A DNA stretch of 64,000 nt, taken from positions 35,828-99,827 of the forward strand of contig JBAZZV010000002.1 of the NCBI GenBank assembly GCA_041658645.1. Reading direction: 5' to 3'. Shown piece by piece: positions 13,601-28,734 of this stretch. The DNA comes from Candidatus Margulisiibacteriota bacterium (GTDB taxonomy: Bacteria; Margulisbacteria; WOR-1; O2-12-FULL-45-9; XYB2-FULL-48-7). A program made the position numbers and the translations under genes. How positions within the stretch are numbered: the first letter of the stretch is position 1; the number at the start of each line of letters is the position of its first letter. The notes under the pieces were generated by a model. It had not been told where the DNA came from. It worked only from the letters and a program-made list of their open reading frames with translations, and searched no databases.

Positions 13601-16600
13601 CGGTTATGGACCTGGATCCGGTCGGAAATATAATCTTGTTTGTCGTTAAGAGTGCGGACTTTGACCCGGTGCTGTTCGCTGAACGAGTTGTGCAAGATCT
13701 GCATGTTCGGGTCGTTCAGCCCGACGCCGCTGAAGTTGGCCAGCTGGTTCTGATACTCGGCCAGCATCGCTTCGTAAACCATCAGGAGCGCCATCTCGAC
13801 AAATCTTAGTTTGGTCAAGTTATCCCGGGCGGCCGCTAGCGAAGCGACATCGGTGCCCCATTTGCCGTCACCCGCGCTGACGTGGTTGTTTTCGTTCAGC
13901 CCATCAATGATCTCCTGTCTTTCGCGGTCGATCTTATCAAATACAGTTTTGCCGGTCGTCTTATTAGGATAGAAAGTGTCTTCACCGGGCAGTCTCTTGT
14001 CGTCAACCGGGTGGCCTTGCTCATACGCCAAACTGCCGACCCCGGCGCCCAGGGTCGCCATTCCGCCGGCGAAACCGATAATGACCAACGGCGTGGCCGC
14101 GCCCCAGGTCGCGATAATAGCTATAGCGGCGATCGCCAGACCGATCGTGGTTCCCCAGGCCTTATAAGCCATTGATTCCAATTCCCGATTCCAGGCATTC
14201 AGGCGGTTATGCTCCCTCACTTTATTCTCTATCCCGGACAGTTTGAGCTCAAACCCGAGTTCCTGGGAACGGAAGGTTTCTTCCGCCGCTTCAACGTGGG
14301 AGCTGTCGATCGTCATCAGCGGTTTTTCCAGCCACATGGAGAGGATGTACTTTACCGTCCTGATCTGGGAGAGACCGACCATGGCGATCGCCCGCATCAG
14401 GTTATGGAGACCTTCGAGCCGGGCCCGAATGTCGGCCACCCCTTTTTCATTCAGGTGCTGGAAGCCGTCGTCTTTATTGATGATGATACCGTCATTCAAG
14501 CCGCTGGCGACCAATTCCCAGCCGAGCTCTTCCGCCTTCTGCATGGCCATGCTCGCCTGTATGTTCGGGTCGCCGCCGGAGACCATGTACTGGGCATTGC
14601 CAACGTGATCTTGGCCCATTTGCCGCAAGATCGCGTAAACGTTATCCATATTCACCTGGGTCGGGGCATAAGTCCGGGAAAGCTTGGAATCAAGCATACA
14701 GCCGGTAAAGTAATCGTTGAGCGCGGTAAAGGGATAAGCGAGGAGAAAGCCGCCGCTAATAGTGCCGGCATAAACCGAAGTCAGCATCGCCTCCGCTTTC
14801 TGCGCTTCCACGAACGCGTCAACCATAGTATTGTGCGAGCTGACCATCCCCACCATGGAATTGATCATGATCGAGAAAAGTTCAAGCTCGAATTTTTGGA
14901 GATCGGCCAGCATCTGGTCAAAAAGCTTGAAGTAACCTTCCCCGACCTTGACCCCGGTCATTATATAAAGAATATCGTTTTTCGCCTGTTCGATCGCTTC
15001 TTTGACAATGTAATAAGCCCGCTCAATGTTATTGAGGCCGACCAGGCGCATCCGGGCCGCCAGGATCTTGTCGCGGTCGATGTCCCACTTCGGCGGCGGG
15101 TCGCCCCCCCCGCCTCCGTTAAGGCCGAAGGCGCCGCCGATACTGGCGGCTTCAGGCGAAAGGGCGATCGCGACGATATTGTCGCCGTTAACGCCGTTGG
15201 CGCCCGCGTAGGCGAGCGCTGAATTAGGAGCAAAGATCGAACCCAGGATATAGGCACCCGCCCCGGTTCCACCCTCCCCGTCTGACTCGATGTCGGTCTG
15301 CACCATATTTCCGCTGTTGATGCCGCCCCAGCCGGTTGACGTATCGCCGAACCAAAGCTTCTTCTTGCCATCAGCCACCGGACTGCCCGCGTTCTCTTCT
15401 TCTTGAATATGCTTGATTATTTTGAGGATGGCTTCTTCCAGGATCCGTTCTCTTGCCGCGTCAAAATCCGCCTTCTCCCTTTCGATGTTCGCCTGGCGTT
15501 CTTTTAAATTCGCGTCATATTCCCGCTTGCTGATCTCACCGCCGCTAAAGACATCGCCCAAACCATCGAAGGCAAATTCTTTGAAGACGGTCTTGAAGCC
15601 GAACCATTCGCCGCTCAGCTCATTGAAGCCCGCTTTCATCTGGTCCCAGTCACCGGTAAACATCCCTTCAAAAAAGTCGCCCGCCCCTTCAACGAAGTTC
15701 TCAACCGAATTAGTAAAAGAATCCCACCAACCCGATTCTTCTTCCGCCCTTCTCTTGGCTTCCGCCACTTTGGCCCTATAAACAGCGTTATTAAAGTCTT
15801 CGATCTTTTCCCTCAATTGCATTTCGATCAACTGGACCTTCTGCAAAGCGGTCTGCCGCATTGACGTCACCAATTCGGCCAGCGACAGGTCGGAATCCCG
15901 GCTCGTAAGATCATTATCGTAAAGCATCTGGTACATCGCGCGCCAAACGTTCCGTTTGCCTTCGGCGACCGTCGCCAAAGCGGTCATGATGTTCCAGAGC
16001 TTCATCAGTTCCTCATAGTCCTTTTGCAGGTCCGGCGACTCGCCGGCATAACTGCTGTTATAGGTCGGATCATTGATGTTCCCGTCAACATAGCCGCCGT
16101 GGTCGATCTTGTCTTGTATCTCTTTCTGTTTGGCTTCGATCATCGCGTCAACCGAATAGGCGGCGTCAACCGTCGGATCGCCGGAACCGGTGCCGCCGGG
16201 CGTGGCCGGAATATGATCATCTTCAGTCCCGTCACCCGGAGGCGGTGGTGGTGGCGGCGGCTCGTCCGGCGTCGGCGGCGGCGCATCCGGAGCCGGCGCG
16301 GTTAAAGTTGAGAATATCTGGTTGCATTTGGCGGTGAGGTTGTCGATATAAAAGTTGGTATATAAACTGGTCGTGGTCATATTCGACGGGGCGAACAGCC
16401 GGTCGACTTCCGCCAATATATAATTACCTTTGTCTTTTTTGGCTTCGATCACCGTCGACTGAATTGCCGATGCCTGCTGTTTGAAAGAGTTGTTGATCGA
16501 GGCATTGATCCCGAACGATTCCTGCGGCTTGAAGGAAATATCGTCGACCAGCAAAAACTCGGAAACCGCGTTCGGATTGATATCCTCGCGGATCTCCTCT

Positions 16601-16647
16601 GAATGGATTTTTGGCTGATTGTTTATCTGGGTAATATTGCTTTGCAT
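10654..16647 (-). CDS. Giant uncharacterised membrane-anchored protein 2, about 1,997 aa from ATG 16647. The ORF is open to a TTG at 16749. The N-terminal region is followed by two TM helices at about nt 14030-14170, then a long coiled-coil and proline-rich C-terminal region (PPPPPPPP; PAPAPIIKQPAPVV).
   Basis: Long ORF. The upstream TTG start at 16749 has no RBS (CCTCC precedes it). ATG 16647 (MQSNITQ) is preceded by the sigma-28-like promoter motif at 16654-16686. TM segment: GTTIGLAIAAIAIIATWGAATPLVIIGFAGGMATLGAGVG. Confidence 0.75.
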   Translation of the reverse strand: MQSNITQINNQPKIHSEEIREDINPNAVSEFLLVDDISFKPQESFGINASINNSFKQQASAIQSTVIEAKKDKGNYILAEVDRLFAPSNMTTTSLYTNFYIDNLTAKCNQIFSTLTAPAPDAPPPTPDEPPPPPPPPGDGTEDDHIPATPGGTGSGDPTVDAAYSVDAMIEAKQKEIQDKIDHGGYVDGNINDPTYNSSYAGESPDLQKDYEELMKLWNIMTALATVAEGKRNVWRAMYQMLYDNDLTSRDSDLSLAELVTSMRQTALQKVQLIEMQLREKIEDFNNAVYRAKVAEAKRRAEEESGWWDSFTNSVENFVEGAGDFFEGMFTGDWDQMKAGFNELSGEWFGFKTVFKEFAFDGLGDVFSGGEISKREYDANLKERQANIEREKADFDAARERILEEAILKIIKHIQEEENAGSPVADGKKKLWFGDTSTGWGGINSGNMVQTDIESDGEGGTGAGAYILGSIFAPNSALAYAGANGVNGDNIVAIALSPEAASIGGAFGLNGGGGGDPPPKWDIDRDKILAARMRLVGLNNIERAYYIVKEAIEQAKNDILYIMTGVKVGEGYFKLFDQMLADLQKFELELFSIMINSMVGMVSSHNTMVDAFVEAQKAEAMLTSVYAGTISGGFLLAYPFTALNDYFTGCMLDSKLSRTYAPTQVNMDNVYAILRQMGQDHVGNAQYMVSGGDPNIQASMAMQKAEELGWELVASGLNDGIIINKDDGFQHLNEKGVADIRARLEGLHNLMRAIAMVGLSQIRTVKYILSMWLEKPLMTIDSSHVEAAEETFRSQELGFELKLSGIENKVREHNRLNAWNRELESMAYKAWGTTIGLAIAAIAIIATWGAATPLVIIGFAGGMATLGAGVGSLAYEQGHPVDDKRLPGEDTFYPNKTTGKTVFDKIDRERQEIIDGLNENNHVSAGDGKWGTDVASLAAARDNLTKLRFVEMALLMVYEAMLAEYQNQLANFSGVGLNDPNMQILHNSFSEQHRVKVRTLNDKQDYISDRIQVHNRKREQDKAIERGWVDVAFGALEAASAGGGAATKAGTALHSAFSLAQLGTKLGHIGTNLAFAIYDQHQGLGGLDSQRDLELMLDNVYKNTSNQFDSQITASERDALQQMNRGMLQGVGGGYVAPNAGVYYAMQTKISNLYNIYLALAIVKQAQNRIFAKLGNTSLAQDPLSQAMYDKRDASLNTLKLLFQRVKELAHRMNELNDLTKKMYVTIGTSALSTFMALNQYSDGKLMKPVYNFIKEKVDKLVEKAGGSSNAKPIEVIKDAKVANIFGENWDGKIGYGDIAAILTKVLVSNNMLSFIIEKAYDAANSNKGDNAKQVQPVKYDENTNNSTVNSLNKIENEKASFQQVTAENELSMDELEAARKIAADFNKFVIGLINDSVNALGWGRDMAKSTPPPLPVESNANQPAPSVQPPTAVADTIMPTIDRIPLDQTQIDPEMLKQAQAAASAVVAAAMNGNLPQAASLLNEAAANKPATKNSKGDLDRANEIEKSIAAKSTNINETEKIQESATLSLAEKQMEQSVVKSAGGIPIKDMNTTQLQAAYDKLRREDWTPRSAEINENNVELGQIKLQLADNAKSLKIVGLPDEVKQEIKTNQVNLESRSADLGTRNSQLKNEIKAYEKISGLIAKEFDKKKKPGEKLIIKDFAVKRAKSANEPPRTAQLTDTEQKPPVDKYVPSPAVNNNPSAAPIQPPGQQAPERATQPLLQQIAKLERTVQAKGDNFVRTAAIDLNGVHDIKKLTSSQIKDAVIVKLHEREKLNKEESELTAKINGLQKAKGGATCVEEIKDINQQIAVLRARQEAIKAERKELSRQIGTLVSELENRSAKAELKEINEYRLLIDRAREEAPVQAHVLKTTNAAIADRTPHSQVGRNVDTVVKDAQPIIAPAPAPIIKQPAPVVLAKVEVQAAETNVPAVKRETKEKKAEAPSTNRQVPAVRPENPIAARVFGDSGRGRDEKKKEARPANGFLEVDDLVEAGV

Positions 16648-16653
16648 CTCTAT

Positions 16654-16686
16654 ATATCTATCGTGGTTTGGGGTCAAAAACTTGCA
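16654..16686 (-). promoter_or_regulatory. Sigma-28-like promoter motif: TGCAAGTTTTT-N12-CGATAGATAT, immediately upstream of the ATG (16647) of giant gene 2.
   Basis: Same bipartite motif. It argues for the 16647 start rather than TTG 16749. Confidence 0.5.
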
Positions 16687-16815
16687 TGGAGGGAGGCCTA
16701 TTTTTAGTGGGTATGAAGCCAAAAATATGATATTTTCGAATGCTATCAACCAGGGAGGATGGACGTCAGCTAATTAAGGCCTGTATTAATAAACCACGGA
16801 GGCTAGATTTTTACG

Positions 16816-18627
16816 TCAGCGGTTTAAGCCTAGTTCTCTGGCTCGCTTAAAACACCTTTCAGCTTCGTCTGCTTTTCCTTGCTTTTTAAATACATTCCCC
16901 TTACCATTCCAGGCATCGGCTTCATTAGGATTAATCTCTATGGCTTTATTATAAGCCATAATTGCTTCATCTAATTTCCCCTGGCCGGCAAAAACATCTC
17001 CTTTATGAAACCAGGCACGAGCAAGATTAGGATCAATGTCCAATGCTTTATTAAGAGCTTCAAGTGCTTCAGTTAATTTCCCTTGCTTTTTAAGCACAGC
17101 TCCTTTGTTGCCCCAGGCATTAGCATAATTAGGATTAATTTGTAATGCTCTATTGCAGGAGTCAAGTGCTTCAGACATTTTCCCTTGCTTATAAAGTGCA
17201 ACTCCTTTATTGCTCCAGGCATTAGCATTGTTGGGATTAATTTGCAATGCTTTATTGTAAGCTTCAAGCGCCTCATTTAATTTCCCTTGGTCAGCAAGCA
17301 CAGCACCTTTATTATTCCAGGCACTATCATTATTAGGATTAATTTGCAATGCTTTATTGTAAGCTTCAAGTGCTTCAGACATTTTTCCTTGTTTATAAAG
17401 CACAACTCCTTTACTATTCCAAACAACATCAAGATTAGGATTAATTATTAGGGCTTTATCGTAAGCCATAAGTGCTTCAGTTAATTTACCTTGATTTTCA
17501 AGCACAACTCCCTTATTGCTCCAAATAACCGCATCGTGAGGATTAATTTCCAAAGCCCTGTTGTAAGCCTCAAGCGCTTCAGTTAATTTCCCCTGTCTGG
17601 CAAGTACAGTTCCTTTACCTTGCCAAGCGATCGCATAATTAGGATTAATTTCTAAAGCTTTGTTGTAAGCTCCTAGTGCTTCATTTAAGTTCCCTTGATT
17701 ACGAAGCGCAGCTCCTTTATTGTTCCAGGCGACAGCATAATTTGGATTAATTTGCAGTGCTTTATTATAAGCTTCAAGTGCCTCATTTAATTTCCCTTGG
17801 CCATAAAGCACCTCTCCTTTACCGACCCAAGCAACAGCATAATTGGAATTAATCTCTAGAGCATTATCGTAGGCCGCAAGCGCCCCATCCAATCCCCCTT
17901 GTTTGTAAAGTACATCTCCAATATTCTTCCAGATGACAGGATCACCAGGATTGATTCCCCATGCCCGCTTATAAGCTTCAAGCGCTTTATCTAATTTTCC
18001 TTGTTTTTCAAACACCATTCCTTTACCGTTCCAGGCATTATCATTTTGGGGCCTAATTTGCAATTCCCTATTGTAGGCATCAAGCGCTTCATCTAATCTC
18101 CCTAAAGCATAAAGCACATCTCCCTTCCTTTGCCAGGGAGTAGGACTATCGGGAGAATTAAATTCCGGCCAAGGGGTAACAAAAAAAGGGTAAAGTTCCA
18201 ATGCTGTATTGTAAGCCGCAAGTGCTTCATCTAATCTCCCTAAAGCATGAAGCACATTTCCTTTATGCTCCCAAGCCATTGCATGATTGTCATTCCAGTT
18301 AGGATTATTTTTTAAGGCGTAAATTTTCAGCGCTCTATTATAAGCTTCAAGTGCTTCATCTAATTTCTCTTGTTTCTTAAGTACAACACCTATATTGCTC
18401 CAGATGTCAGGATCATCAGGATTGATCTTTAATGCCTGCTTATAAGCTTCAAGCGCCTCATTAAATTTCCCCTGCTGTGAAAGTGCATTACCTCTATTGT
18501 TCCAGGCATTAATACTGGGAGAGCACCCACTCCCAAGACTTAAAACTCCCAAAGAAAAAACTGCGGCTCGTGCGGCTGTGCGCACCTGTTTTGGCAACAT
18601 TCTTACTCCTAATATTCCTCGTATCAT
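16816..18627 (-). CDS. TPR-repeat lipoprotein (603 aa, about 15 consecutive 34-aa TPR units). It has a signal peptide with a lipobox.
   Basis: N-terminus: MIRGILGVRMLPKQVRTAARAAVFSLGVLSLGSGC (lipobox LGSGC). Repeated W-x-x-KG-x-x-L-x-x-QGK-x-x-EA-x-x-AYNKAL-x-INPN units. A GGAGG RBS lies 9 nt upstream. Confidence 0.85.
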   Translation of the reverse strand: MIRGILGVRMLPKQVRTAARAAVFSLGVLSLGSGCSPSINAWNNRGNALSQQGKFNEALEAYKQALKINPDDPDIWSNIGVVLKKQEKLDEALEAYNRALKIYALKNNPNWNDNHAMAWEHKGNVLHALGRLDEALAAYNTALELYPFFVTPWPEFNSPDSPTPWQRKGDVLYALGRLDEALDAYNRELQIRPQNDNAWNGKGMVFEKQGKLDKALEAYKRAWGINPGDPVIWKNIGDVLYKQGGLDGALAAYDNALEINSNYAVAWVGKGEVLYGQGKLNEALEAYNKALQINPNYAVAWNNKGAALRNQGNLNEALGAYNKALEINPNYAIAWQGKGTVLARQGKLTEALEAYNRALEINPHDAVIWSNKGVVLENQGKLTEALMAYDKALIINPNLDVVWNSKGVVLYKQGKMSEALEAYNKALQINPNNDSAWNNKGAVLADQGKLNEALEAYNKALQINPNNANAWSNKGVALYKQGKMSEALDSCNRALQINPNYANAWGNKGAVLKKQGKLTEALEALNKALDIDPNLARAWFHKGDVFAGQGKLDEAIMAYNKAIEINPNEADAWNGKGNVFKKQGKADEAERCFKRARELGLNR

Positions 18628-19311: not shown

Positions 19312-19554
19312 TTACCCTTTGGGATTGGAAGGGGTGTATCTGTCTGGTTGGTCAGCCGGTTTTTCATCCGACTGTGTCGGTAGCATCCTGCCTTTCTCTT
19401 TCCCGCTAGCCTTGTTCCCAACATAACCGGCCAGCCGCTGGGCGGCTGGATCATCAAAAAACGCCGTAGTAAGTTGTTTACCAGGACCGGCCGCGGCCGG
19501 TGTCCACGAGCCGCCGATATAAGTATCTGTATTAATTCCTGCCGCGTATCCCAT
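19312..19554 (-). CDS. Small hypothetical protein (80 aa).
   Basis: ORF whose start overlaps the stop of the upstream gene by 1 nt (translational coupling). No recognisable domain. Confidence 0.45.
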   Translation of the reverse strand: MGYAAGINTDTYIGGSWTPAAAGPGKQLTTAFFDDPAAQRLAGYVGNKASGKEKGRMLPTQSDEKPADQPDRYTPSNPKG

Positions 19555-20543
19555 TACTTATTTGCCTCCTGCGGTACCTCTTGTTTAGGTGACTGGGTAA
19601 CGGTGTTGACTACCGGGGGCTGTTGTACCCCATCCGGAGCCGCCATTCCACCATTATTAATCGAGTGCGGCCAGAATCCACCCCTCATCACATAGCCATA
19701 ATCAAAAGTTCCGTATTGTTTTAACAGACTAAGTTGATTGTTATATCTCTCTAATGCATCTTTGCCTCTTTTTCCGGGTTTTCCTAATTCCTGAAGCATT
19801 TCATTGATCACTTCGGTTTTATCTTTGTCTTTACCCGGCTGGATTTTTGCGATCATCCTTGGAATCACAAAGATCGACATCAGCATTGCCCACTTTTGGT
19901 CCTTGGTTAGATTTTTATCCTCCTGAATTTCCTGCATCTTAGCGCTAATTTTATGATCATAATGATTACTGGACTCATTGCCATATTCTGTTTTGATCCA
20001 AATGCAAGCCTGCTCAAGGGTACCAAAAACTGATTTTCCAGCTTCAATTTGGTCAGCTGAACTGACATAGATAAATCCATGAGTATTATGAACATATTGA
20101 TTAAAAGCGTCGCTAAAGTTATCCACTCTGTTGGAGTAGCCGCTGTCCCGCTGGTGATTAAAAGCTATTTGAGTGTTATGCATCCGATTTATTGCTCTGT
20201 CAAGGTCCGTAACAAGACATTCCGCCGGGCCATCTTTCCTGCCAAGGACTACGGCTTGAAAATTATCTTCACTATCAAATTCGAAACCACGTAAACCATT
20301 CTTTTCCATAACTTTGTTCCAATATTTCATGGTAATTATGCCGCCAGGCGCATTTCTTAAGTCCCGATTGACCTGACCTGCTTTTTCCCGACTACAACCA
20401 AGCAAAGCGGCCATTTTTCGATCAGGATCATATATTGATCGTGTTGATTGGTCAGTACCAATCGGAGCAGTAATCTTCTCATTATTTTTAACCGGTACCG
20501 TTGTACCGTTAGCAGCTGACGCTGATGCTGGATTTACTGGCAT
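19554..20543 (-). CDS. Hypothetical protein (329 aa), member of the sigma-28-motif gene block.
   Basis: ORF overlapping the upstream gene by 35 nt. No signal peptide and no known motif. Confidence 0.6.
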   Translation of the reverse strand: MPVNPASASAANGTTVPVKNNEKITAPIGTDQSTRSIYDPDRKMAALLGCSREKAGQVNRDLRNAPGGIITMKYWNKVMEKNGLRGFEFDSEDNFQAVVLGRKDGPAECLVTDLDRAINRMHNTQIAFNHQRDSGYSNRVDNFSDAFNQYVHNTHGFIYVSSADQIEAGKSVFGTLEQACIWIKTEYGNESSNHYDHKISAKMQEIQEDKNLTKDQKWAMLMSIFVIPRMIAKIQPGKDKDKTEVINEMLQELGKPGKRGKDALERYNNQLSLLKQYGTFDYGYVMRGGFWPHSINNGGMAAPDGVQQPPVVNTVTQSPKQEVPQEANK

Positions 20544-21387
20544 TTCTTGTCCCTCCCCTAAAATTCATCGTCATGATCCCTGCGAGATCATGTTTAACAG
20601 CGCCCTCAACCTTATCCAGCCGAGCGGAGATCGAATCGAGATTTTGCGCCTGGCTGTTTAACTGGGAACCGGCGTCGTCGGAAGTAGAGCTGTCGCCGCC
20701 ACCGGCCGGTGCCAGGCTCTTCACCGTTGCTAACATCTGCCCCATCTCGACCGCCTTCCCCTCTACCTGCCCGATCTTCCTGTCCAGCTCACTGGTATCG
20801 AGTCCAAGACGTTCGGCGCCGGCTTTGATCGCTTTTAAGTCGCCAACGATCTGGCCGGTTTTCGCGATCGCTTGTTTCAGCCGGGCGCGCAGTTCGTTCT
20901 GTTTTTGCTCCACCCGGTGCTGAAGATATTTTTCATCCAACCGTTTCTCTTCTTTCTTGTGCTCAACCTCTTCTTTCCCGGCTTTGGTTGACGGCTTGCC
21001 CATCACCGCGTCGTTGATCCGGCGTTGGGCGGCTAAAATATCGTTTAACAGCTGTTCGGTCAAGGTCGACAGATCGCCCCGCGGAGCAAACTCACCGCTT
21101 AAAGCCGAGCTACCCTCACTCTCGTCGGTTTGCGTGGACTGGACCGCTGCCATATAGTTGCCGACCAGCTGGTCAAAGTCATCCTGGTCCATCTTGCCCT
21201 GCGCGTATTTGAGCAGGTCTTCTTCATTCATTTTATTGGGGTCTTTGGTCTCACCGACATAACTGGAAAGGAGGTCCCCTTTGCCCATCTTCAACAGCGC
21301 CTGCCCGGTCCGGCCCAAAAGCCGGAAGTTCGGGTTACTAAGATTCAGCTTAACGCTGACGTCTAATTGGACTGATACATCACCCAT
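20509..21387 (-). CDS. Hypothetical coiled-coil protein (292 aa).
   Basis: ORF preceded by a GGAGAA RBS and the sigma-28-like motif at 21405-21437. The central region is rich in charged heptads (EEVEHKKEEKRLDEKYLQHRVEQKQNELRARLKQ). Confidence 0.65.
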   Translation of the reverse strand: MGDVSVQLDVSVKLNLSNPNFRLLGRTGQALLKMGKGDLLSSYVGETKDPNKMNEEDLLKYAQGKMDQDDFDQLVGNYMAAVQSTQTDESEGSSALSGEFAPRGDLSTLTEQLLNDILAAQRRINDAVMGKPSTKAGKEEVEHKKEEKRLDEKYLQHRVEQKQNELRARLKQAIAKTGQIVGDLKAIKAGAERLGLDTSELDRKIGQVEGKAVEMGQMLATVKSLAPAGGGDSSTSDDAGSQLNSQAQNLDSISARLDKVEGAVKHDLAGIMTMNFRGGTRNASKSSISVSC

Positions 21388-21404
21388 TGGTTGTTCTCCT
21401 ACCC

Positions 21405-21437
21405 ATATTATCGGAACTAACGGCTAAAAACTTGCAT
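21405..21437 (-). promoter_or_regulatory. Sigma-28-like promoter motif: TGCAAGTTTTT-N11-CCGATAATAT.
   Basis: Upstream of the 292-aa coiled-coil gene (start 21387). Confidence 0.55.
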
Positions 21438-23047
21438 TAATTTATCAGTTTCGTCTCACCCAGGATCCTCTGCATCAGCTTCTTGAGCAGGCCTTCTTTT
21501 TTGTCCAGGGCCGGATTCTTCCCATTGGTTTTCGCCTGTTTGACCTCAACTAGTTCCTTCCTGGCCAGGGAGAAGACCCGGGCGTTGGCTTGGTCGCGCA
21601 GGCGGACAAAATCGGCATCGGAAACCGGCAGGTCCAACCGTTTCAGGTTCTTCAGGAGTCCCTTGAGCCTAGTTTCCACCATCTGGTGGGCGGGGCCGGA
21701 AAGGTCATACAGAGTCGCTCTCTCCAACAGGGCTTCATTAAGCATCTCCACCGTCCGCTGTTTGGCCAGCTCCTGGGCTTCGCCTTTAATTTGCTCGTCC
21801 AGCTGGTCGGTAAAGATACCGAGGCGGAAGATGCCGTTTTTCAGCTTCCTGACCTTGAGCTCGGTCGAGATGGTTGTCAGCAGGTCGCCCTTGATCGCTC
21901 TCTGCATGTAGACCGCTCTCAAGCGATTGACCAGCAGTTCTTTCTCGTCTTTTTCGGTATACTCATAGGGGTTCTTCGGCGGCTGGCGCGACATGTCGCC
22001 CGCGTTGGTATTGACGTTATTGCCGGCCAGGCCGCCGGGCGGATCGAAATAGGTCAAGCCCAGATCGTTCTTTTCTTGCTTCCAGACCCGGTTTGTCCAG
22101 CCGGCAACATCCGCCCCCAGGTTTTCGGCCTTAACCGCGATCTTGGCGAGGGTGGAGAGGTCTTTTTTCCCTTCTTTCATGGTGACGCTGATCAGCTCTT
22201 TTTCCAGCTCCTGCATGAGAAAGTCCTTGATCTCCGCTTTGGCTTCTTTGCCGGCAAAGTCCGACGTCCCCTGGACGCCGTCGTGATAGCCGCCGAAATC
22301 CCAATTGCCTAATTTATCATTTTTAAAGACCTTGCTGGTATAAGCCCAAATCCCGATCTTAGCCGAAGCTTCCTCGACATTTCCTTCGGCCAAAGCGACC
22401 GCCACATACCGTTCCTTGATCCCGTCGGTGATCTGTTTTCTGATCTCATTCTTGATCTTAAGCTTGAGCGCAATGAGCTCTTTCTCCGGCACACCCTTTT
22501 CCAGTATTTTGTCCTTTAAGGTCTTTAATTTGGCGGCCAGGCCGGGATCGTTGCTGACCAAACTTTCTAGTAAAAGTGACGAATATTGCTGGACCAACCC
22601 TTTTAACTCACTGCCCGTGGAATAAGTTTTGACCCCCTGATTGCCGCTGTTCTCTCCTTCCTGCCGGCCTTTCTTTCCTTTATATTTTTCCACGCCGGTG
22701 ATCGCGTCTTCCAGCGCGCTTCTCGAGAGGGCGACCGTGTCCTCCCCTGTTTCGTCCTTGCCCAACATTCTGTCATATTCCTTATCCAGCTTGTTCAACA
22801 CCCCTTTGGTGGAAACGCCGGCTGACAGGCCGATGCTGGGCAATTTACCGAGGGTGTCAAGGATCATATCCATCTTGCCCTTTTTGTCGATCCCGCCGCC
22901 GCTCATGACCTTTTCCAAAATCTCTTTGGCCGTCCGCTTTGTTGCGGTCGTCTTGTCAAGGTTGTGCTTGGGAACTACCGCTTGGTTAAGGATCGCTCCT
23001 TCGTTCAGGGCGACGTTGATCTGCTGATTGTTGACCGTTTGGACCAT
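21437..23047 (-). CDS. Hypothetical protein (536 aa), Lys/Glu-rich, partly coiled-coil.
   Basis: Long ORF. Its start overlaps the stop of the 68-aa upstream gene by 1 nt. Confidence 0.65.
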   Translation of the reverse strand: MVQTVNNQQINVALNEGAILNQAVVPKHNLDKTTATKRTAKEILEKVMSGGGIDKKGKMDMILDTLGKLPSIGLSAGVSTKGVLNKLDKEYDRMLGKDETGEDTVALSRSALEDAITGVEKYKGKKGRQEGENSGNQGVKTYSTGSELKGLVQQYSSLLLESLVSNDPGLAAKLKTLKDKILEKGVPEKELIALKLKIKNEIRKQITDGIKERYVAVALAEGNVEEASAKIGIWAYTSKVFKNDKLGNWDFGGYHDGVQGTSDFAGKEAKAEIKDFLMQELEKELISVTMKEGKKDLSTLAKIAVKAENLGADVAGWTNRVWKQEKNDLGLTYFDPPGGLAGNNVNTNAGDMSRQPPKNPYEYTEKDEKELLVNRLRAVYMQRAIKGDLLTTISTELKVRKLKNGIFRLGIFTDQLDEQIKGEAQELAKQRTVEMLNEALLERATLYDLSGPAHQMVETRLKGLLKNLKRLDLPVSDADFVRLRDQANARVFSLARKELVEVKQAKTNGKNPALDKKEGLLKKLMQRILGETKLIN

Positions 23048-23253
23048 TAAATGCCCCCTCTAAGGCCGGATAAGATCATTTCCCGGCTTCTCTTTTCCTT
23101 CAGCAGTGACACCTTTTTCCCGGTCGTTTTAATAAAGGTGTCGACTTTCTGGATATAGCCGTCCAGTATCTTGATCTTTTTATCCAGGTCGGCGACCTTG
23201 ATCGTTTCTTCTTCCTGGAGTAATTCCGGTTTAATTTCGGCCATATAATTCAC
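23047..23253 (-). CDS. Small hypothetical protein (68 aa) ending in GGI.
   Basis: Short ORF translationally coupled on both sides. Weak on its own. Confidence 0.4.
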   Translation of the reverse strand: MNYMAEIKPELLQEEETIKVADLDKKIKILDGYIQKVDTFIKTTGKKVSLLKEKRSREMILSGLRGGI

Positions 23254-23947
23254 ACAATTCCTTCAGGCCCTTTAGATTGCCGACTTGTTCCGCCAGGTTC
23301 TCCCTGATGATTTGCGCCTGCTCCAGCCGGAGTTCGTGAAGATTGAGTTGGGAGACCGGCTTGCCCAGCCGCTGGGCCTGCAGGGAAAGTTGTTTTTCGA
23401 TCTCGGCCATGATCCGGCGCTCTTTTTTGTTCTTGCCGCCGGAAATGGTCAGCAGGACATAATTCCTGGCGTTTTCCTTAAACAGCAGTTTGTTCTGTTT
23501 TTCGAGATCTTCCAGCGCCTGCCGCCGCAAAGCTTCCAGCTCACCCGGCGAAACCCCGGCCAGCGAGAGGAGAAAACGCAAGGCACCCGCTTTGAAAGAG
23601 TAATATTTCGAGACGAGCAGGTTGGGCGATCCCTGCGCCTGCTGGAGCGCTTTGGTAAAAGCGTCTTTCCAGGTTTCCAGGCTGGCCGCGCCAAAGGCCG
23701 GCGCTTTGACGGCTGCCTGCGTATAAACGACCGCCGAGGCGTAGGAATGGGTGAGCCGCGGCAAACCGGTAAACTCTGAACTGCCCGCCTCTTCCGATCC
23801 GGCGACCTGCGCCAGGTATTTTGACCAGTCGGGAGCGGCTTCCGTCTTGGGGGGCGCTTTTTCCGCCGGCTGTTGGTTGGCTTGCGGTTTGCTCTTCAAA
23901 GCGAACAGCGCCGCTTTATTATAAGCGTTCAGATTGCATTCAGTCAT
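23231..23947 (-). CDS. Hypothetical protein (238 aa).
   Basis: ORF overlapping the GT2 gene stop by 8 nt. No known motif. Confidence 0.6.
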   Translation of the reverse strand: MTECNLNAYNKAALFALKSKPQANQQPAEKAPPKTEAAPDWSKYLAQVAGSEEAGSSEFTGLPRLTHSYASAVVYTQAAVKAPAFGAASLETWKDAFTKALQQAQGSPNLLVSKYYSFKAGALRFLLSLAGVSPGELEALRRQALEDLEKQNKLLFKENARNYVLLTISGGKNKKERRIMAEIEKQLSLQAQRLGKPVSQLNLHELRLEQAQIIRENLAEQVGNLKGLKELCELYGRN

Positions 23948-25031
23948 TTTTTTTCTCCAGGATATTTATCACCGACAGGACTTTTTGATCCGGCTGGGCC
24001 TTATAAGCCTGCCGGAAATTATCCAGAGCCTGCTCTTTATTGCCCAATTTCAGCCAGGCCATTCCCAGCAGGTAATAGGGATAATAATCATAAAGCCGGA
24101 CATTAAGGGGAGCGCAGTTGCCCCCTTTAAGCGGGAAATTGGCTATCGGCTTGAGAATTTCTACCGCCTCCAGCGGCTGATCAGCAGCCAGCAGCAGAGT
24201 TGCTTTTACCACTCTCGGCTCCGGATCAAAAGGATCACGCAGACAAGCGTCAGCGGCCACCTTCATGGCCTGGCCTGTTTGCTGGAGAAGGATAAAACAG
24301 CGCGCTAACTGACAGCGCGCTTTCGTCATGATCTCACCCTCCGGTAAAAACTGAATCGCTTGCTGATAGGTTTCAGCCGCCGGTTGAAATAAGTTTTTCC
24401 TGAAATAGGTATTGGCCAGCAGATAGGCGAATTGCGGATCGTCCGGTTTTTTGGCCAGCGCTTGCTCAAACATGGTCACGCTTCTTTCCAGTTTTTGCGC
24501 TTTTTTCTTCTCGTCCAGGGCGGCAAGGCCGCCCCAGTGATAAATATTAAAATCGATCTCTTTACGGGTGGCTTGTTCAGCAGTGTTCAGCTCTTCATTC
24601 ACCGGCCGGACAAAATGGAAACCCCTGCCGTTTCTGAATATTTTATCCCGTTTGTAAAAGACATCGCTTTTAGTTTCGCCTTTTTGGCATTCCCAGATCC
24701 GGCCGAAGATCAGGTCGGCTGGACCGTCCCGGAGAAACTCCCTTAGTTTTTGGAATTCCCGCGGGGTAACGTACTCATCGGCATCGAGCCAGAGGATATA
24801 TTGGCCGGCGGCGTGTTTTAAGCTCTCGTTGCGGGCGGCGGAAAAGTCATTGGTCCAGGGGAATTCGTAAAGCCCGGCCCCGGCCTCCCGGATGATCTCT
24901 TTGGTCCGATCGGTCGAGCCGGTATCAACAACGATAACCTCATCAGCCCCGGCCATGACCGAAGGCAAGGTTTTGAGGAGATTCTCCTCTTCGTTTTTGA
25001 CTATCATGCAGACAGAAAGTAGCTTTGCCAT
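23940..25031 (-). CDS. Family-2 glycosyltransferase with a C-terminal TPR domain (363 aa).
   Basis: N-terminus LSVCMIVKNEEENLLKTLPSV...VIVVDTGSTDRT...WLDADE is a GT-A/GT2 fold with a DxD motif. C-terminal TPR-like helices. The sigma-28-like motif lies at 25039-25070. Confidence 0.8.
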   Translation of the reverse strand: MAKLLSVCMIVKNEEENLLKTLPSVMAGADEVIVVDTGSTDRTKEIIREAGAGLYEFPWTNDFSAARNESLKHAAGQYILWLDADEYVTPREFQKLREFLRDGPADLIFGRIWECQKGETKSDVFYKRDKIFRNGRGFHFVRPVNEELNTAEQATRKEIDFNIYHWGGLAALDEKKKAQKLERSVTMFEQALAKKPDDPQFAYLLANTYFRKNLFQPAAETYQQAIQFLPEGEIMTKARCQLARCFILLQQTGQAMKVAADACLRDPFDPEPRVVKATLLLAADQPLEAVEILKPIANFPLKGGNCAPLNVRLYDYYPYYLLGMAWLKLGNKEQALDNFRQAYKAQPDQKVLSVINILEKKND

Positions 25032-25038
25032 ACCTACT

Positions 25039-25070
25039 AATATATCGGGTTAAATGGACAATAACTTGCA
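25039..25070 (-). promoter_or_regulatory. Sigma-28-like promoter motif: TGCAAGTTATT-N11-CCGATATATT.
   Basis: Upstream of the GT2-TPR gene (start 25031). Confidence 0.55.
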
Positions 25071-25106
25071 TAAAAAGGGGGGGAACAAGGGAAACAAAGG
25101 CCTGGG

Positions 25107-25292
25107 TTACTCGTCTCCTTTATTCCTCTTGCTGGCTGACTTGGCGGCTGTTTCCACATGCTGTTTGAAGAAATTGGCCATCATTGATTGCTGAAACTTA
25201 GCCAAGGCGGCCTTAGGGTCAAGGTTCTTGCCCCAATCGCCATTATTCAACTTATCGATATTCGCGTTAAGCGGTCCTTCGACTGCGGCCAT
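25107..25292 (-). CDS. Small hypothetical protein (61 aa).
   Basis: Short ORF with a strong RBS (GAGAGGTGAG) and its own sigma-28-like motif at 25311-25343. Confidence 0.5.
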   Translation of the reverse strand: MAAVEGPLNANIDKLNNGDWGKNLDPKAALAKFQQSMMANFFKQHVETAAKSASKRNKGDE

Positions 25293-25310
25293 TTAACTCA
25301 CCTCTCTAAC

Positions 25311-25343
25311 TTTAATATCGTAACCAGAAAGAAAATACTTGCG
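25311..25343 (-). promoter_or_regulatory. Sigma-28-like promoter motif: CGCAAGTATTTT-N11-CGATATTAA.
   Basis: Upstream of the 61-aa gene (start 25292). Confidence 0.5.
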
Positions 25344-25346
25344 TGA

Positions 25347-27425
25347 TCACTTTTTATTTTTCTGCCTTAGCGTTTTGAGATTGTCCGACCGGGCGGCGGC
25401 CGTTTTTTCAACCGCGACCTTCTGCTGTTTGGCCTTTTCGGACGCGGCCTTGGCTTCGCCCGTTTTAGCTCTTGCTCTGGCCGCGCTTTTCGCTTCGGCA
25501 ACAGCCGTTTCCCATTTATCATCCCGAACTTTTTCCTTTTCCTTTTTATAATCTTCGGTTTTTCGCTCATGTCCGTTCCGATTAAATTTATTTATTTGAC
25601 TTATCTGTATCGTATAATCAAGATAAGCCATGGCTTTGTTAAGCAAATTACTGTAAGCCCGGAAATTGTAGGAATTATTATAAAGATTAACCGTGCCCAG
25701 GTCCTCGTTATTCTGCCACAAGTGGGCGGTCGAGTTTCGGCTCAGATTGAAATAGTTCAGACCGACAAACAGACCGCGGGCGCTCCCCCTGACATTCGCC
25801 ACCTGAACATTATACCAAAGCAGATCACTGCCGCCTTCAATAACCGGCAAATCGGTCCAGCTGCCCCCCCCGTCCCAACCTTCGACATTCAACATCCAGT
25901 TCTGCAGATCAGCACCGGGTGAACCCAGCCAAGCTCTATCCTGAAAGTTATAGCCTTCAGAAGAGATAGGATACATGGAAATACCTTCTGATTCGCCTAC
26001 TTTTTTAGGATAATAAACGTTATTCTCTTCCAGGTGGCCGTAAAACTCCGCTTTTAGACTGGTTACCACATGTTTTTTATAGTCATCGTCACTTTTAAAT
26101 CCATTCAAATATCCAGATAGACCACTAACGGCATCTTTAACCGATATATTTCCCTGCTTTAAATCGTCTATAATTTTAGTAATATTGGCCGTTTTGATCT
26201 TGAGGCCGCCCAGCGCATTTAAGACCTGCTCCACGCTGGTCGCGCTGGCCAGGGCATTTTTGGTGCCGGCAAAACTTCCGTTAAATACCCAGCTATTATC
26301 AAACTGGGCAAAAACACTGTCAATCCAGGCTTTATACTTAGTAAATGGAGCTTGCGGATCGCCCCAACCGCCGCCTTTGAAGGGATCAAAGTCGCCATTC
26401 CATCCTCTCCCGGCCGAAAGCGCGCCGATCCATTGCCCGGCGGTATCCCACAGTTCATAGTATTCAGTGAAAAGAAATTGATTAAGCTGGCCCGATTCCT
26501 GCCCCCGCCAGTCGGTCGGCTTATTATCCGACCAGGAAGCTATTTTTTTCATTTTATCAGCGTCAGTCAGCTCGTCAAGGGCACCGTAGGAGAGGGCATT
26601 CTGCGTTACACCATACCCAAAATCATAGCTCTTAGCTTGCGGCCGGTGACTGCCAAAAAGGTCAGTCATGGCGTAAGCGATCCGTCTTTTTGATTCGATC
26701 AGCCCGAGTATCCAGGCGATCCCCTGCTCCGGTCCTGGATTATTACTATTTTGTTTAAAGTTTTCATATACAAATTCATAATAGTTGCGGTTGACATTCA
26801 AACCGGCTTTTTTTTCCTTAAAAAGGGTTGAATAGTCCGGCACATAGCCAAGCTCCGCTCCGGCCGTCCCGGAACCGGTGCGTTTATAGACATAGCTCAT
26901 ATCGTCAAATTCATACGCGTCGATCGCTTCATCTATACTTCCGAGACTGCCATCGGTATACTGGACCTGATTAAATTCATCGTATATCTTGGGGGATTTG
27001 GCATTGCCCACATAATTAAAGTGCTGGAAATCCGAGGCGCCAAAATAATAATCAAGACCGGGAGTTTGTTTTTCTTTATTTATTGTTTTCTCCCCCCAAA
27101 ATTCCAAAGGAACACCGGGCTCTAACTGATCGTTTATCCCGTTGCCATTCGAGTCAGACATAGAAAAACGCAGCTTCATGTGATGCGTGGCGCCGGGTTC
27201 ATCAAGCGTCCCGGCAAGATCCTCACCGCTGATCTTGGAAATTATTCTCTGCGGGGGTAAAAACTTCATCATTTCCTGGAGAAAGTTTACGCGGGAAAAA
27301 AGCCAGCGGCGGCCGCGCACGGTCGTCTCGTTGCCCCAGACCCCTTCTTCGCCAAACGTCCCGTCAACGGGAACGTTGGGGATATAAGGAGCCGGCGCGG
27401 GGGTCATTACATCAAAATCGGTCAT
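25347..27425 (-). CDS. Large hypothetical protein (692 aa) with a Lys/Ala/Glu-rich basic C-terminal tail.
   Basis: Long ORF with an AAAGGCAGG RBS. No signal peptide and no recognisable catalytic motif. The C-terminal about 90 aa are highly charged (KEKEKVRDDKWETAVAEAKSAARARAKTGEAKAASEKAKQQK). Confidence 0.7.
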   Translation of the reverse strand: MTDFDVMTPAPAPYIPNVPVDGTFGEEGVWGNETTVRGRRWLFSRVNFLQEMMKFLPPQRIISKISGEDLAGTLDEPGATHHMKLRFSMSDSNGNGINDQLEPGVPLEFWGEKTINKEKQTPGLDYYFGASDFQHFNYVGNAKSPKIYDEFNQVQYTDGSLGSIDEAIDAYEFDDMSYVYKRTGSGTAGAELGYVPDYSTLFKEKKAGLNVNRNYYEFVYENFKQNSNNPGPEQGIAWILGLIESKRRIAYAMTDLFGSHRPQAKSYDFGYGVTQNALSYGALDELTDADKMKKIASWSDNKPTDWRGQESGQLNQFLFTEYYELWDTAGQWIGALSAGRGWNGDFDPFKGGGWGDPQAPFTKYKAWIDSVFAQFDNSWVFNGSFAGTKNALASATSVEQVLNALGGLKIKTANITKIIDDLKQGNISVKDAVSGLSGYLNGFKSDDDYKKHVVTSLKAEFYGHLEENNVYYPKKVGESEGISMYPISSEGYNFQDRAWLGSPGADLQNWMLNVEGWDGGGSWTDLPVIEGGSDLLWYNVQVANVRGSARGLFVGLNYFNLSRNSTAHLWQNNEDLGTVNLYNNSYNFRAYSNLLNKAMAYLDYTIQISQINKFNRNGHERKTEDYKKEKEKVRDDKWETAVAEAKSAARARAKTGEAKAASEKAKQQKVAVEKTAAARSDNLKTLRQKNKK

Positions 27426-27447
27426 TTTTCAACCTGCCTTTTCTGCT

Positions 27448-27801
27448 TTAACCGCCGGCCATCATTTTGGCGGCCGTTTCGTCATAACTTAGCCGCTTCT
27501 GGAACAAACCCATGGTCATATTGTACTGGTTTTCCAATTGGGAGGTCGCGTAGTTGATCGCCATCAGGCCGCCGGAAGAGGTCTTGTCAACTTCGCCCAG
27601 GCCAAAGACGCTTAAGTCGACAATTTTAATTTCAGAATTTGACGTCTCCAGCGTGATCTTATTCAGTTTTTTGAAAATGATCCGCAGGAACTCTTTGGTA
27701 TCAGCGGCAGAGACCTGGCCGCCCGAGCGCACGCTGTTCTGGGCGGCAAAAACCGACCCGGCTGATTGATTGTTGACCGATTTATCCATTTTTCCCTCCA
27801 T
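27448..27801 (-). CDS. Small protein, paralog B of a pair (117 aa; the start is possibly at 27789). It ends in ...KMMAGG.
   Basis: It shares the core K-[ST]-[AS]-GGL-[FM]-A-[VI]-x-x-x-x-S-x-x-E-[RN]-Q with the upstream 98-aa gene. A GGAGGG RBS is present. The hairpin at 27829-27850 lies immediately upstream. Confidence 0.6.
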   Translation of the reverse strand: MEGKMDKSVNNQSAGSVFAAQNSVRSGGQVSAADTKEFLRIIFKKLNKITLETSNSEIKIVDLSVFGLGEVDKTSSGGLMAINYATSQLENQYNMTMGLFQKRLSYDETAAKMMAGG

Positions 27802-27828
27802 TTAATCCCGACGAACGAAATTAAAGAG

Positions 27829-27850
27829 AGGGGGGAGAATTCTCCCCCCT
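27829..27850 (-). terminator. Intrinsic terminator/attenuator hairpin (9-bp GC stem, AATT loop) followed on the coding strand by CTCTTTAATTT, located between the two paralogous small-protein genes.
   Basis: aggggggag-aatt-ctcccccct with a T-rich 3' flank on the minus strand. Confidence 0.65.
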
Positions 27851-27859
27851 ATAAACCTT

Positions 27860-28156
27860 TTAACCACCCTGGGTTCTCTTATAATCGACGGCCGCTCCCT
27901 TTGTAAGCTCAATTCCCTTTTTCGGAGCCGCGGCTGAAATTGTTTGGGCTCTTTCGTTAAGACTAACTTCCTGGGTAACCGCGAACAATCCACCGGCGGA
28001 TTTCACGTCAACGTCATCCAGCTTCATTTGCGTCAGATGAACCTCACCCCCGTCAACCGATGATTTAGCAATCTGCACGGTGAGCTCGTTTAATTGATTC
28101 CCAAGCTCGGTTAACGCCGTATAAGATTTCTGCAATCCTTCAAGTTCTGTTGCCAT
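27860..28156 (-). CDS. Small protein, paralog A of the pair (98 aa). It ends in ...KRTQGG and is the candidate major structural subunit.
   Basis: AGGAGGTGAAAAGGT RBS. It is followed by an 8-9 bp GC hairpin plus a T-rich tract, which is attenuator-like. It is paralogous to the downstream 117-aa protein. Confidence 0.65.
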   Translation of the reverse strand: MATELEGLQKSYTALTELGNQLNELTVQIAKSSVDGGEVHLTQMKLDDVDVKSAGGLFAVTQEVSLNERAQTISAAAPKKGIELTKGAAVDYKRTQGG

Positions 28157-28189
28157 ACCTTTTCACCTCCTTTTTGCCATACTGTCGAA

Positions 28190-28405
28190 TCAAACCAGCT
28201 GGTTGATCGAACTGCCTGAACCAGCCGGCGGAATTGCCTCTTTGGAAACCGGGCCCGCATCCGTAACTTCCGCGATCTTGAGATCGAGACCGCTCTCTTC
28301 AAATCTCGCCTTAACGAGGCCCTTTAGATCGGAGAGGAGATCAGTAATTTGCCCTGAATTCGCCTGACTATTAAGATTTAAATTACCGATCGTTGAATTG
28401 CCCAT
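28190..28405 (-). CDS. Small hypothetical protein (71 aa).
   Basis: GGGAGCGG RBS. The sigma-28-like motif lies at 28420-28452 directly upstream. Confidence 0.5.
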   Translation of the reverse strand: MGNSTIGNLNLNSQANSGQITDLLSDLKGLVKARFEESGLDLKIAEVTDAGPVSKEAIPPAGSGSSINQLV

Positions 28406-28419
28406 TGTCCGCTCCCACT

Positions 28420-28452
28420 ATACTTATCGTACTCCGAAAGACAAAACTTGCA
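28420..28452 (-). promoter_or_regulatory. Sigma-28-like promoter motif: TGCAAGTTTT-N13-CGATAAGTAT.
   Basis: Upstream of the 71-aa gene and the paralog A gene. Confidence 0.55.
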
Positions 28453-28734
28453 TTAATCTTCTTTCAGCTTTTTCTCGACTTGAGAGATCTTTTTCAGTAT
28501 CTCGTCGAGGCCTTCATCTTGCGCGGCCAAGCCGGTAAAAAAATCAGCGAACAGTTTTTTGTCGGACATGGCGCCGGCAAAGGTCTCCGTCCCGCGGGTC
28601 ACCTGGTCGGCCCGGAAATTCTCGATCAGATTGCGCACAAAAGAGAGGGAAGCCGGTTGATTGCTGGGGGCGTTATCCAGCGTCTTAGGGCTCATTTGCC
28701 TGAACATAGAAGCTGAAATGCCGTCTAATAACAT
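28453..28734 (-). CDS. Small hypothetical protein (93 aa).
   Basis: ORF 12 nt downstream of the OMP gene with a GGAAAGGA RBS. Confidence 0.5.
   Translation of the reverse strand: MLLDGISASMFRQMSPKTLDNAPSNQPASLSFVRNLIENFRADQVTRGTETFAGAMSDKKLFADFFTGLAAQDEGLDEILKKISQVEKKLKED

Follow-up and report, generated by a model that had tools for sequence, protein, structure and literature searches.

Two adjoining genes, here called A and B, lie on the minus strand of a 64-kb stretch of DNA (hereafter the window) that matches a metagenome-assembled genome (MAG) of Candidatus Margulisiibacteriota, and their products are real paralogs of an undescribed protein family. To the explanation that we prefer we give an even chance: A and B would both be subunits of a single assembly of several proteins, lineage-specific and probably extracytoplasmic; the surrounding cluster of approximately 12 genes would encode it, and dosage would be set at the RNA level. 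A would be an abundant, surface-exposed, fast-evolving building block, and B a scarcer, conserved partner, co-produced with the large protein whose gene comes next, that may serve as adaptor or nucleator. Three features would set the dosage. A carries an invariant, perfect and unstructured Shine-Dalgarno (SD) sequence; a G/C-rich hairpin past the A stop codon would act as a leaky terminator and/or a 3′-end stabiliser; and in read-through transcripts a second hairpin would pair a CCUCU anti-SD with the SD of B, leading to less B translation. The principles involved are known ones, namely major and minor paralogous subunits, intercistronic hairpins and occlusion of the ribosome-binding site (RBS), while neither the protein family nor the RNA element has been described before.

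An earlier prediction made from the letters of this DNA (the original prediction) had pointed to adjacent open reading frames (ORFs) of 98 and 117 aa, both ending in Gly-Gly and separated by a hairpin. Coordinates and sequences are as it described them, all on the minus strand, and the genes are as follows:

27860-28156, minus: gene A, 98 aa, ending in KRTQGG; NCBI WC632_02600; exact database match; founder of the A subfamily
27448-27789, minus: gene B, 113 aa, ending in KMMAGG; NCBI WC632_02595

The 117-aa ORF (27448-27801) is real, but it begins at an upstream ATG, and the true start of B is almost certainly the second ATG, at 27789, which gives a product of 113 aa. This is the start in the NCBI annotation; the corresponding MDKS start is found in three of four close homologs and in the depositor's annotation (P0003), the exception being the homolog P0005, whose called start is the upstream ATG. 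The GGAGGG SD of B contains the first ATG of the 117-aa ORF.

A and B are paralogs of an undescribed family

The original prediction had proposed paralogy from a shared core, and this is borne out. BLASTP aligns A and B with 33% identity over 45 aa (E 5e-5), and comparison of profiles by hhalign gives E 1.9e-6 (probability 89.6%) for ortholog families of four members each and E 9.1e-10 (probability 96.5%) for 8 A-type against 12 B-type sequences. As controls, A or B was compared by hhalign with every other small-protein family of the cluster, and no relationship was found (E at least 0.019). The two families can be aligned along their entire common length and have a common layout, consisting of an N-terminal amphipathic helix, a short strand-turn-strand, the core motif K-[ST]-[SA]-x-G-L-[FM]-A-[VI]-T and a long C-terminal helix. 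B has in addition a disordered, low-complexity N-terminal extension of approximately 27 aa. Part of this extension (residues 1-13, 27751-27789; QSAGSVFAAQN) resembles the core motif KSAGGLFAVTQ in residues 45-64 of A, with a BLASTP E of 0.038 in a single comparison, and could be a swapped or autoinhibitory segment.

The family is restricted to one phylum, Margulisiibacteriota/Saganbacteria. An exhaustive profile search returned 8 clusters at E ≤ 1e-3 among 1.84 billion representatives, all of 106-114 aa, and the members with a named source come from MAGs of candidate division WOR-1, Saganbacteria or Margulisbacteria. Word-index searches gave only two to four close homologs, a profile scan of genome contigs found L001 (one of the related loci, which are denoted here by L numbers) again, and scans of metagenomes for relatives gave nothing or again the WOR-1 DG_54_3-type contig. 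Viral contigs scanned with the profile of the large downstream protein, of 692 aa in the window, gave no match. Searches of A and B against Pfam, NCBIfam, PHROGs and PADLOC produced no meaningful match, and sequence and profile searches of the PDB were likewise empty. Orthologs of A occupy the same position in the cluster in L001, L002, L004, L005, L007, L008, L009 and L013. The Margulisiibacteriota are an uncultured, diderm lineage, sister to Cyanobacteria, and to our knowledge almost nothing is known of their cell biology; a literature search on cell structures of Margulisbacteria and Saganbacteria found nothing relevant.

An AlphaFold2 (AF2) model of B, built from an alignment of 16 sequences, has a predicted local distance difference test (pLDDT) score of 73 overall and of 84-92 over residues 28-100. 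It contains a helix (residues 28-50), a beta-hairpin (56-58/66-68) and a second helix (72-111), and B is thus predicted to fold as an antiparallel coiled-coil hairpin tipped by a small beta-hairpin. The model of A, from an alignment of four sequences, is helical and of low confidence (pLDDT 54), too poor for a fold search. Foldseek comparison of the B model with PDB and viral models returned nothing at E ≤ 0.001, and no Pfam family recurred among 20 members of the A/B family, even at E ≤ 10.

The predicted topology of B is that of the prefoldin beta subunit. Prefoldin, like the A/B pair, combines two paralogous subunit types, alpha and beta, of approximately 110 aa and helix/beta-hairpin/helix form, at an unequal stoichiometry, which for A and B we infer. 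On this likeness A and B might form a prefoldin-like cytoplasmic holdase with its subunits joined through their beta-hairpins, a reading that we regard as very improbable. No Prefoldin match was found in Pfam searches of the 20 members, nor by profile, and the structural scores cannot be told from those of generic coiled coils. The helices of the A/B family are unequal in length (in B 23 residues in the N-terminal helix against 40 in the C-terminal one), and the family tolerates large insertions at the tip; the S/T/G/N-rich inserts of the paralogs in L012 (described below) would disrupt a hub such as the double beta-barrel of the alpha2-beta4 prefoldin hexamer. The genomic setting also differs, A and B lying within a 12-gene cluster without annotation, unlike prefoldin, and the A/B family occurs in bacteria, within a single phylum.

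The Gly-Gly ends had been singled out by the original prediction as a hallmark of ubiquitin-like or ThiS/MoaD-type modifiers or of processed subunits. Gly-Gly at the end of both proteins holds in this genome and in its nearest relative, and fails beyond these two. The A-family proteins, with orthologs assigned by synteny, end in QGG, MGG, MRG, TAR, GNS, SMG, AKG, QLS and RIG (some of them, at greater length, NMRG, ATAR, RGNS, RSMG, DAKG and AQLS), and those of the B family in AGG, SGG, IGS, FGG, SAA (SSAA), MVG, LIG, SGG and LVG. The tail of the B family consists of small residues and commonly finishes in Gly, which is terminal in 9 of 12 sequences, six of them with Gly-Gly. Gly-Gly is therefore conserved in neither family, an outcome that the original prediction had itself named as counting against its reading, and we propose that the Gly-Gly termini of A and B are incidental.

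That A and/or B are ubiquitin-like, ThiS/MoaD or SAMP-type modifiers or sulfur carriers, activated at the C-terminal Gly-Gly, is accordingly hard to credit, and we reject this identity. It draws on the Gly-Gly ends of both proteins here and on the frequency of terminal Gly in the B family, and these ends are the only likeness to the beta-grasp modifiers ThiS, MoaD, SAMP and TtuB and to the Pup-like GG/GGQ ends. The ends are lost in orthologs of both families, and the check by structure prediction gives for B a helical hairpin from which the beta-grasp fold is absent. ThiS, MoaD and ubiquitin profiles of Pfam and NCBIfam gave no match at E ≤ 1, nor any at E ≤ 10 in the 20 family members. As for partner enzymes, the original prediction had seen no E1/ThiF-like gene nearby, and indeed no E1/ThiF/MoeB/UBA, JAMM or sulfurtransferase domain was found among the larger genes scanned with Pfam across the window, nor any E1, JAMM or sulfur-transfer domain in the precomputed Pfam results for related loci. 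The lesson is that a C-terminal Gly-Gly is by itself no sign of a ubiquitin-like system, and a tempting false lead is removed. A double-glycine bacteriocin leader was also considered and dropped, that motif being N-terminal.

RNA elements and the predicted dosage of A and B

The RNA features on which the proposed dosage mechanism draws are the following:

28163-28172, minus: SD of A, AAGGAGGUGA, full-length and perfect
28157-28177, minus: 21-nt block before the A start codon, AAAAGGAGGUGAAAAGGUAUG, containing the SD of A
27829-27850, minus: hairpin 1, a 9-bp stem (7 GC), AGGGGGGAG-AAUU-CUCCCCCCU, from 9 nt past the A stop codon
27795-27831, minus: hairpin 2, with a long stem; its 5′ base, CCCUCU (27826-27831), pairs with the B SD GGAGGG (27794-27799)

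The block AAAAGGAGGUGAAAAGGUAUG is identical in four lineages (the window, L001, L007 and L009) and differs by one base in L005. Upstream of it there is no conservation, and the A proteins of those lineages are only 22-50% identical; for a full-length SD the block is unusually well conserved. The predicted probability that the A SD block is unpaired is 0.61-0.78 in the window, L001, L005 and L007, and 0.38 in L009; for the SD of B it is 0.24-0.39. A is moreover the fastest-evolving gene of the cluster, with 45% identity to its ortholog in L001, where B has 70% and the other genes have 64-90%. Because its SD is invariant and accessible, a strong hairpin follows it, and its ortholog identity is the lowest in the cluster, A is read as the putative abundant, exposed, major subunit.

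Hairpin 1 is the top terminator-like site in a 6-kb scan, and for the 81-nt spacer between A and B the predicted folding energy is -29.1 kcal/mol (z -2.4). In the 64 kb there is one instance of the pattern GGGGGG-N3-10-CCCCCC, where 0.09 would be expected; repetitive extragenic palindromic (REP) elements and miniature inverted-repeat transposable elements (MITEs) were dropped as candidates, hairpin 1 being unique in the window. A hairpin of a G-run and a C-run is found in this place in the window, L001, L002, L004, L005, L007, L009 and L013 (assessed for each sequence and not by alignment column, since MAFFT sets the G-run in different registers). The B proteins of the distant loci that keep it (L005, L007, L009 and L013) are only 25-31% identical to that of the window. 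L008 and L012 have other, stronger hairpins in its place, of 12 bp and 14 bp (z -3.1 and -6.7). Across lineages hairpin 1 begins 6-15 nt past the A stop codon, and in all the lineages examined the first A gene has some strong hairpin immediately behind it. The GC stem noted by the original prediction is thus confirmed. The T-tract that it saw behind the stem is weak: the tail CUCUUUAAUUU has 4 U in its first 8 nt (3-5 U in 8 nt when the orthologs are included) and is itself paired, forming the 5′ arm of the conserved hairpin 2. Such a weak U-tract is compatible with a partial (leaky) terminator, and hairpin 1 could equally be a 3′-end stabiliser.

Hairpin 2 is a conserved SD-sequestering helix with covariation, as judged from aligned sequences, and we propose that it dampens translation of B. 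At its base it shares 3 nt with the 3′ arm of hairpin 1, and its outer pairs, between CCUCU (a mimic of the 16S anti-SD) and GGAGG of B, are present in seven of seven sequences. Over the seven lineages 91.9% of the cells are paired and five pairs are changed on both sides; when the alignment is slid, at most 62% are paired, and none of 500 shuffles reaches the observed values. In L007 the minimum free energy and centroid structures differ, with hairpin 1 and hairpin 2 as alternatives in competition. Rfam searches yielded no family match in the window, and only chance-level matches on the spacer.

From hairpin 1 to the B start codon there are approximately 35 nt, almost wholly occupied by hairpin 2. 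This leaves no room there for a promoter of B, and hairpin 1 must therefore be leaky. The conserved and covarying SD:anti-SD helix, in turn, suggests selection on the read-through transcript. These two points bear on a simpler reading, in which hairpin 1 is the plain terminator of an operon that ends at A, without any role in setting a ratio, and in which B and the genes behind it are transcribed independently. That hairpin 1 is the best terminator-like site of the region, and that a strong hairpin follows A in all lineages, are as such a reading would have it. We nonetheless consider it improbable, given that the interval before B offers no space for a promoter plus leader, that the U-tract has only 3-5 U in 8 nt, and that the helix over the B SD is conserved with covariation.

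Under the preferred explanation, a terminator or stabiliser role of hairpin 1 combined with occlusion of the B SD would make the predicted output of A far greater than that of B. The original prediction had described the arrangement as an attenuator that sets the ratio of a major to a minor subunit. Its ratio-setting aspect is supported in silico by the hairpin that follows A everywhere, the accessible SD of A and the occluded SD of B; the mechanism goes beyond a simple attenuator, a second, SD-occluding hairpin being involved. Operons with intercistronic hairpins and SD sequestration, such as those of pilin and fimbrial genes, 3′ stabilisers and RBS occlusion, offer a close comparison: a GC-rich stem-loop lies directly behind the presumed major-subunit gene, and the downstream gene here lacks a promoter of its own and has its SD paired to a CCUCU anti-SD mimic. 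What differs here is that the hairpins form a two-hairpin unit without an Rfam family, in which hairpin 1 and the SD-occluding helix can compete through the 3 nt that they have in common, and that this unit is conserved at the nucleotide level across lineages whose proteins are only 25-30% identical. With hairpin 1 in front and the SD-occluding helix behind it, the spacer would be a compact RNA device for holding two paralogs at a fixed ratio, one that is testable in a heterologous reporter.

The gene cluster and the proposed assembly

A and B belong to a conserved cluster without annotation:

19554-28734, minus: the cluster, approximately 12 genes, with orthologs in L001, L007, L008 and L009
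28453-28734, minus: X1, 93 aa, upstream of A; conserved synteny; unrelated to A/B
28190-28405, minus: X2, 71 aa, upstream of A, with hydrophobic residues and then Val at its end; conserved synteny; unrelated to A/B
25347-27425, minus: 692-aa protein, Trp-rich and Cys-free, with a Lys/Glu/Ala-rich C-terminal tail; conserved partner gene downstream of B
19554-25292, minus: the rest of the cluster, encoding a 61-aa protein, a GT2-TPR glycosyltransferase, a 238-aa protein, an approximately 65-aa coiled coil, and proteins of 536, 292 and 329 aa
23940-25031, minus: the GT2 glycosyltransferase, a fusion with TPR repeats; an insertion that the cluster has only in this genome and in L001
28747-29694, minus: 315-aa protein with a signal peptide and a sub-threshold PorV/PorQ-family match (NCBIfam 5e-11, 42.7 bits compared to a cut-off of 90)

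The conserved gene order begins with a protein of approximately 95 aa, one of approximately 70 aa (hydrophobic end, then Val), A and B, and continues with a protein of 650-1021 aa and others of approximately 60-67 aa, 240 aa, 65 aa (the coiled coil), 535 aa, 280 aa and 300 aa. Orthologs of the genes behind the large one stand in the same order in L001, L007, L008 and L009. The 315-aa PorV-like outer-membrane protein heads the cluster only in the closest relatives (the window, L001 and L002). In searches of the cluster proteins against Pfam, NCBIfam, PHROGs and PADLOC, the sole exceptions to a blank result were the GT2-TPR protein and the sub-threshold PorV_fam match. The 692-aa protein, whose orthologs in L001, L007 and L009 are 40-66% identical, matched nothing in Pfam, NCBIfam, PHROGs, PADLOC or the PDB, and sequence and profile searches of the PDB with the 692-aa and 536-aa families gave no match.

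The core cluster proteins have no predicted signal peptide or transmembrane (TM) segment, and Cys makes up 0.23% of their residues, compared to 1.29% in the housekeeping proteins of the window (Fisher p 4.5e-7); judged by this composition they are likely non-cytoplasmic. Some flagellin glycosyltransferases, such as GmaR of Listeria, combine GT2 and TPR domains, and by analogy the GT2-TPR enzyme may glycosylate a cluster protein.

The tip of the predicted hairpin appears, from alignments, to be insertion-tolerant in the A family. Short inserts are found there in the A orthologs of L001 and L002, and a more extensive case is the locus L012 (Logan SRR29054613), upstream of its B homolog P0014:

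L012:820-3561: four tandem A-like paralogs, of 97, 207, 236 and 305 aa

When these are aligned with A orthologs, all have the N-terminal helix in common, as well as the C-terminal motif with its helix, and S/T/G/N-rich inserts of 0-150 aa lie between these terminal elements, at the predicted hairpin tip. The paralogs have in common the motif DPsTs.GMF.VGqETDK, and the one of 305 aa has an additional Gly/Asp-rich N-terminal extension of approximately 150 aa.

Conserved terminal helices and a variable middle are also the plan of flagellin, axial and EspA-type subunits, a likeness that is an architectural analogy from established knowledge. Flagellin and axial proteins and the filament and needle subunits of type III secretion systems (T3SS), such as FliC, FlgK/L, EspA and PrgI/PrgJ, have conserved terminal helices packed as an antiparallel hairpin and an insertion-tolerant middle, as the A/B family appears to have. 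They also come as tandem paralogs in major and minor forms, lack signal peptides and have almost no Cys, and in both cases a presumed major-subunit gene, here A, is preceded by a very strong RBS and followed by a strong hairpin; the glycosyltransferase in the cluster recalls the flagellin systems as well. The differences are considerable. A and B show no sequence or profile similarity to Flagellin_N/C, Flg_bb_rod, FliD or the needle families (Pfam is blank for all orthologs), and no significant structural match was obtained. Export gate, ATPase, rod, hook and ring genes were not found nearby, nor was a type III export apparatus in the window or the related loci. Compared to flagellins, A and B are much shorter, and where those have D2/D3 domains or a PxxP turn, the tip here is a beta-hairpin. 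Subunits of gas vesicles (GvpA/J), R-bodies (Reb) and Ena spore appendages were dropped as candidates; their folds and compositions differ, and Pfam matched no cluster protein other than the GT2-TPR enzyme.

In every locus the large protein (650-1021 aa) starts 11-47 nt after B, which suggests co-expression of the two. The same proximity gives some weight to a doubtful alternative, namely that A and B are small helical chaperones or adaptors of the large protein, forming a pre-export or stabilising complex comparable to WXG100 or Lap proteins with LXG proteins, to PE/PPE or to T3SS class chaperones. The gene order, in which several small helical proteins precede a large one and a protein of approximately 60 aa comes after it, is what such systems would lead one to expect; so are the predicted hairpin folds of both A and B, at approximately 100 aa, and a Cys-poor cluster without signal peptides. 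In type VII secretion, WXG100 (EsxA/EsxB) and Lap proteins of LXG systems are likewise adjoining paralogous helical hairpins of approximately 100 aa, and their genes directly precede that of a large protein which has no signal peptide. Yet no WXG100 (PF06013), LXG, DUF3130, DUF3958 or chaperone signal was detected in A or B by Pfam. The WxG turn is not conserved in the family, the turn being FGLGEVD here and variable elsewhere. An FtsK-like EssC/EccC or T3SS ATPase was not found in the 64 kb, and the host lineage is diderm. Moreover, the perfect SD of A, its fast divergence and the tandem paralogs of L012 with their large tip inserts fit an exposed structural protein better. For B alone an adaptor role is plausible, and it partly falls within our preferred explanation.

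To return to that explanation, in which A and B are subunits of one assembly, the structural-subunit reading favoured by the original prediction finds support in silico as a major and minor pair. The stoichiometry (A major, B minor), the assembly into a polymer or hetero-oligomer and the extracytoplasmic location are those that we infer. Several observations weigh against it. Low Cys content and the lack of signal peptides would equally fit a cytoplasmic coiled-coil scaffold, and no export machinery, ATPase or membrane component was seen in the cluster. With the poor model of A (pLDDT 54), a fold common to A and B rests on the alignment to B; the helical hairpin is a generic fold, and to read it as a subunit of an assembly is an architectural analogy. 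At the RNA level, the different hairpins of L008 and L012 come with no obvious SD sequestration, and the covariation in hairpin 2 derives mostly from one divergent lineage, L009.

A more specific proposal, which we think unlikely as a whole, is that A and B with the approximately 12 genes make up a filament or surface apparatus of Margulisiibacteriota/Saganbacteria of a kind not seen before. It would be built from flagellin-like hairpin subunits with variable tip inserts, with A as the major subunit, B as adaptor or nucleator and the 650-1021-aa protein as the distal or functional component. Export would proceed without Sec signals, by machinery that is not yet recognised, and the two-hairpin RNA switch would fix the stoichiometry. 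What gives the locus its interest is that a conserved cluster without annotation, in an uncultured phylum, bears the sequence signatures of two kinds of product, a polymer-type subunit that is exposed and strongly expressed and a conserved partner made in smaller amounts.

Some further observations concern the termini of other small proteins in these clusters. Proteins of 60-83 aa have a hydrophobic C-terminal tail that finishes in Val (INQLV, NIIV, NTFV, NVVV, GRVV and QVLV):

Window 28190-28405 (minus); L005:206-430; L007:9279-9530; L008:6122-6328 and 18005-18229; L009:10286-10474: Val-tailed small proteins

The members of the approximately 65-aa coiled-coil family (window 23047-23241) end in GG followed by L, I or F.

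Elsewhere in the window, there are two giant ORFs without a Pfam domain, at 61-8514 (plus; 2817 aa) and 10654-16749 (minus; 2031 aa). The 2031-aa protein, which lacks a signal peptide, has a central TM-like pair (approximately residues 864-907) and both Pro-rich and coiled-coil stretches. Two convergent, adjoining genes of the phosphofructokinase family, at 55369-56577 (plus) and 56694-57668 (minus), lie beside a class II aldolase gene, in an ordinary glycolytic context.

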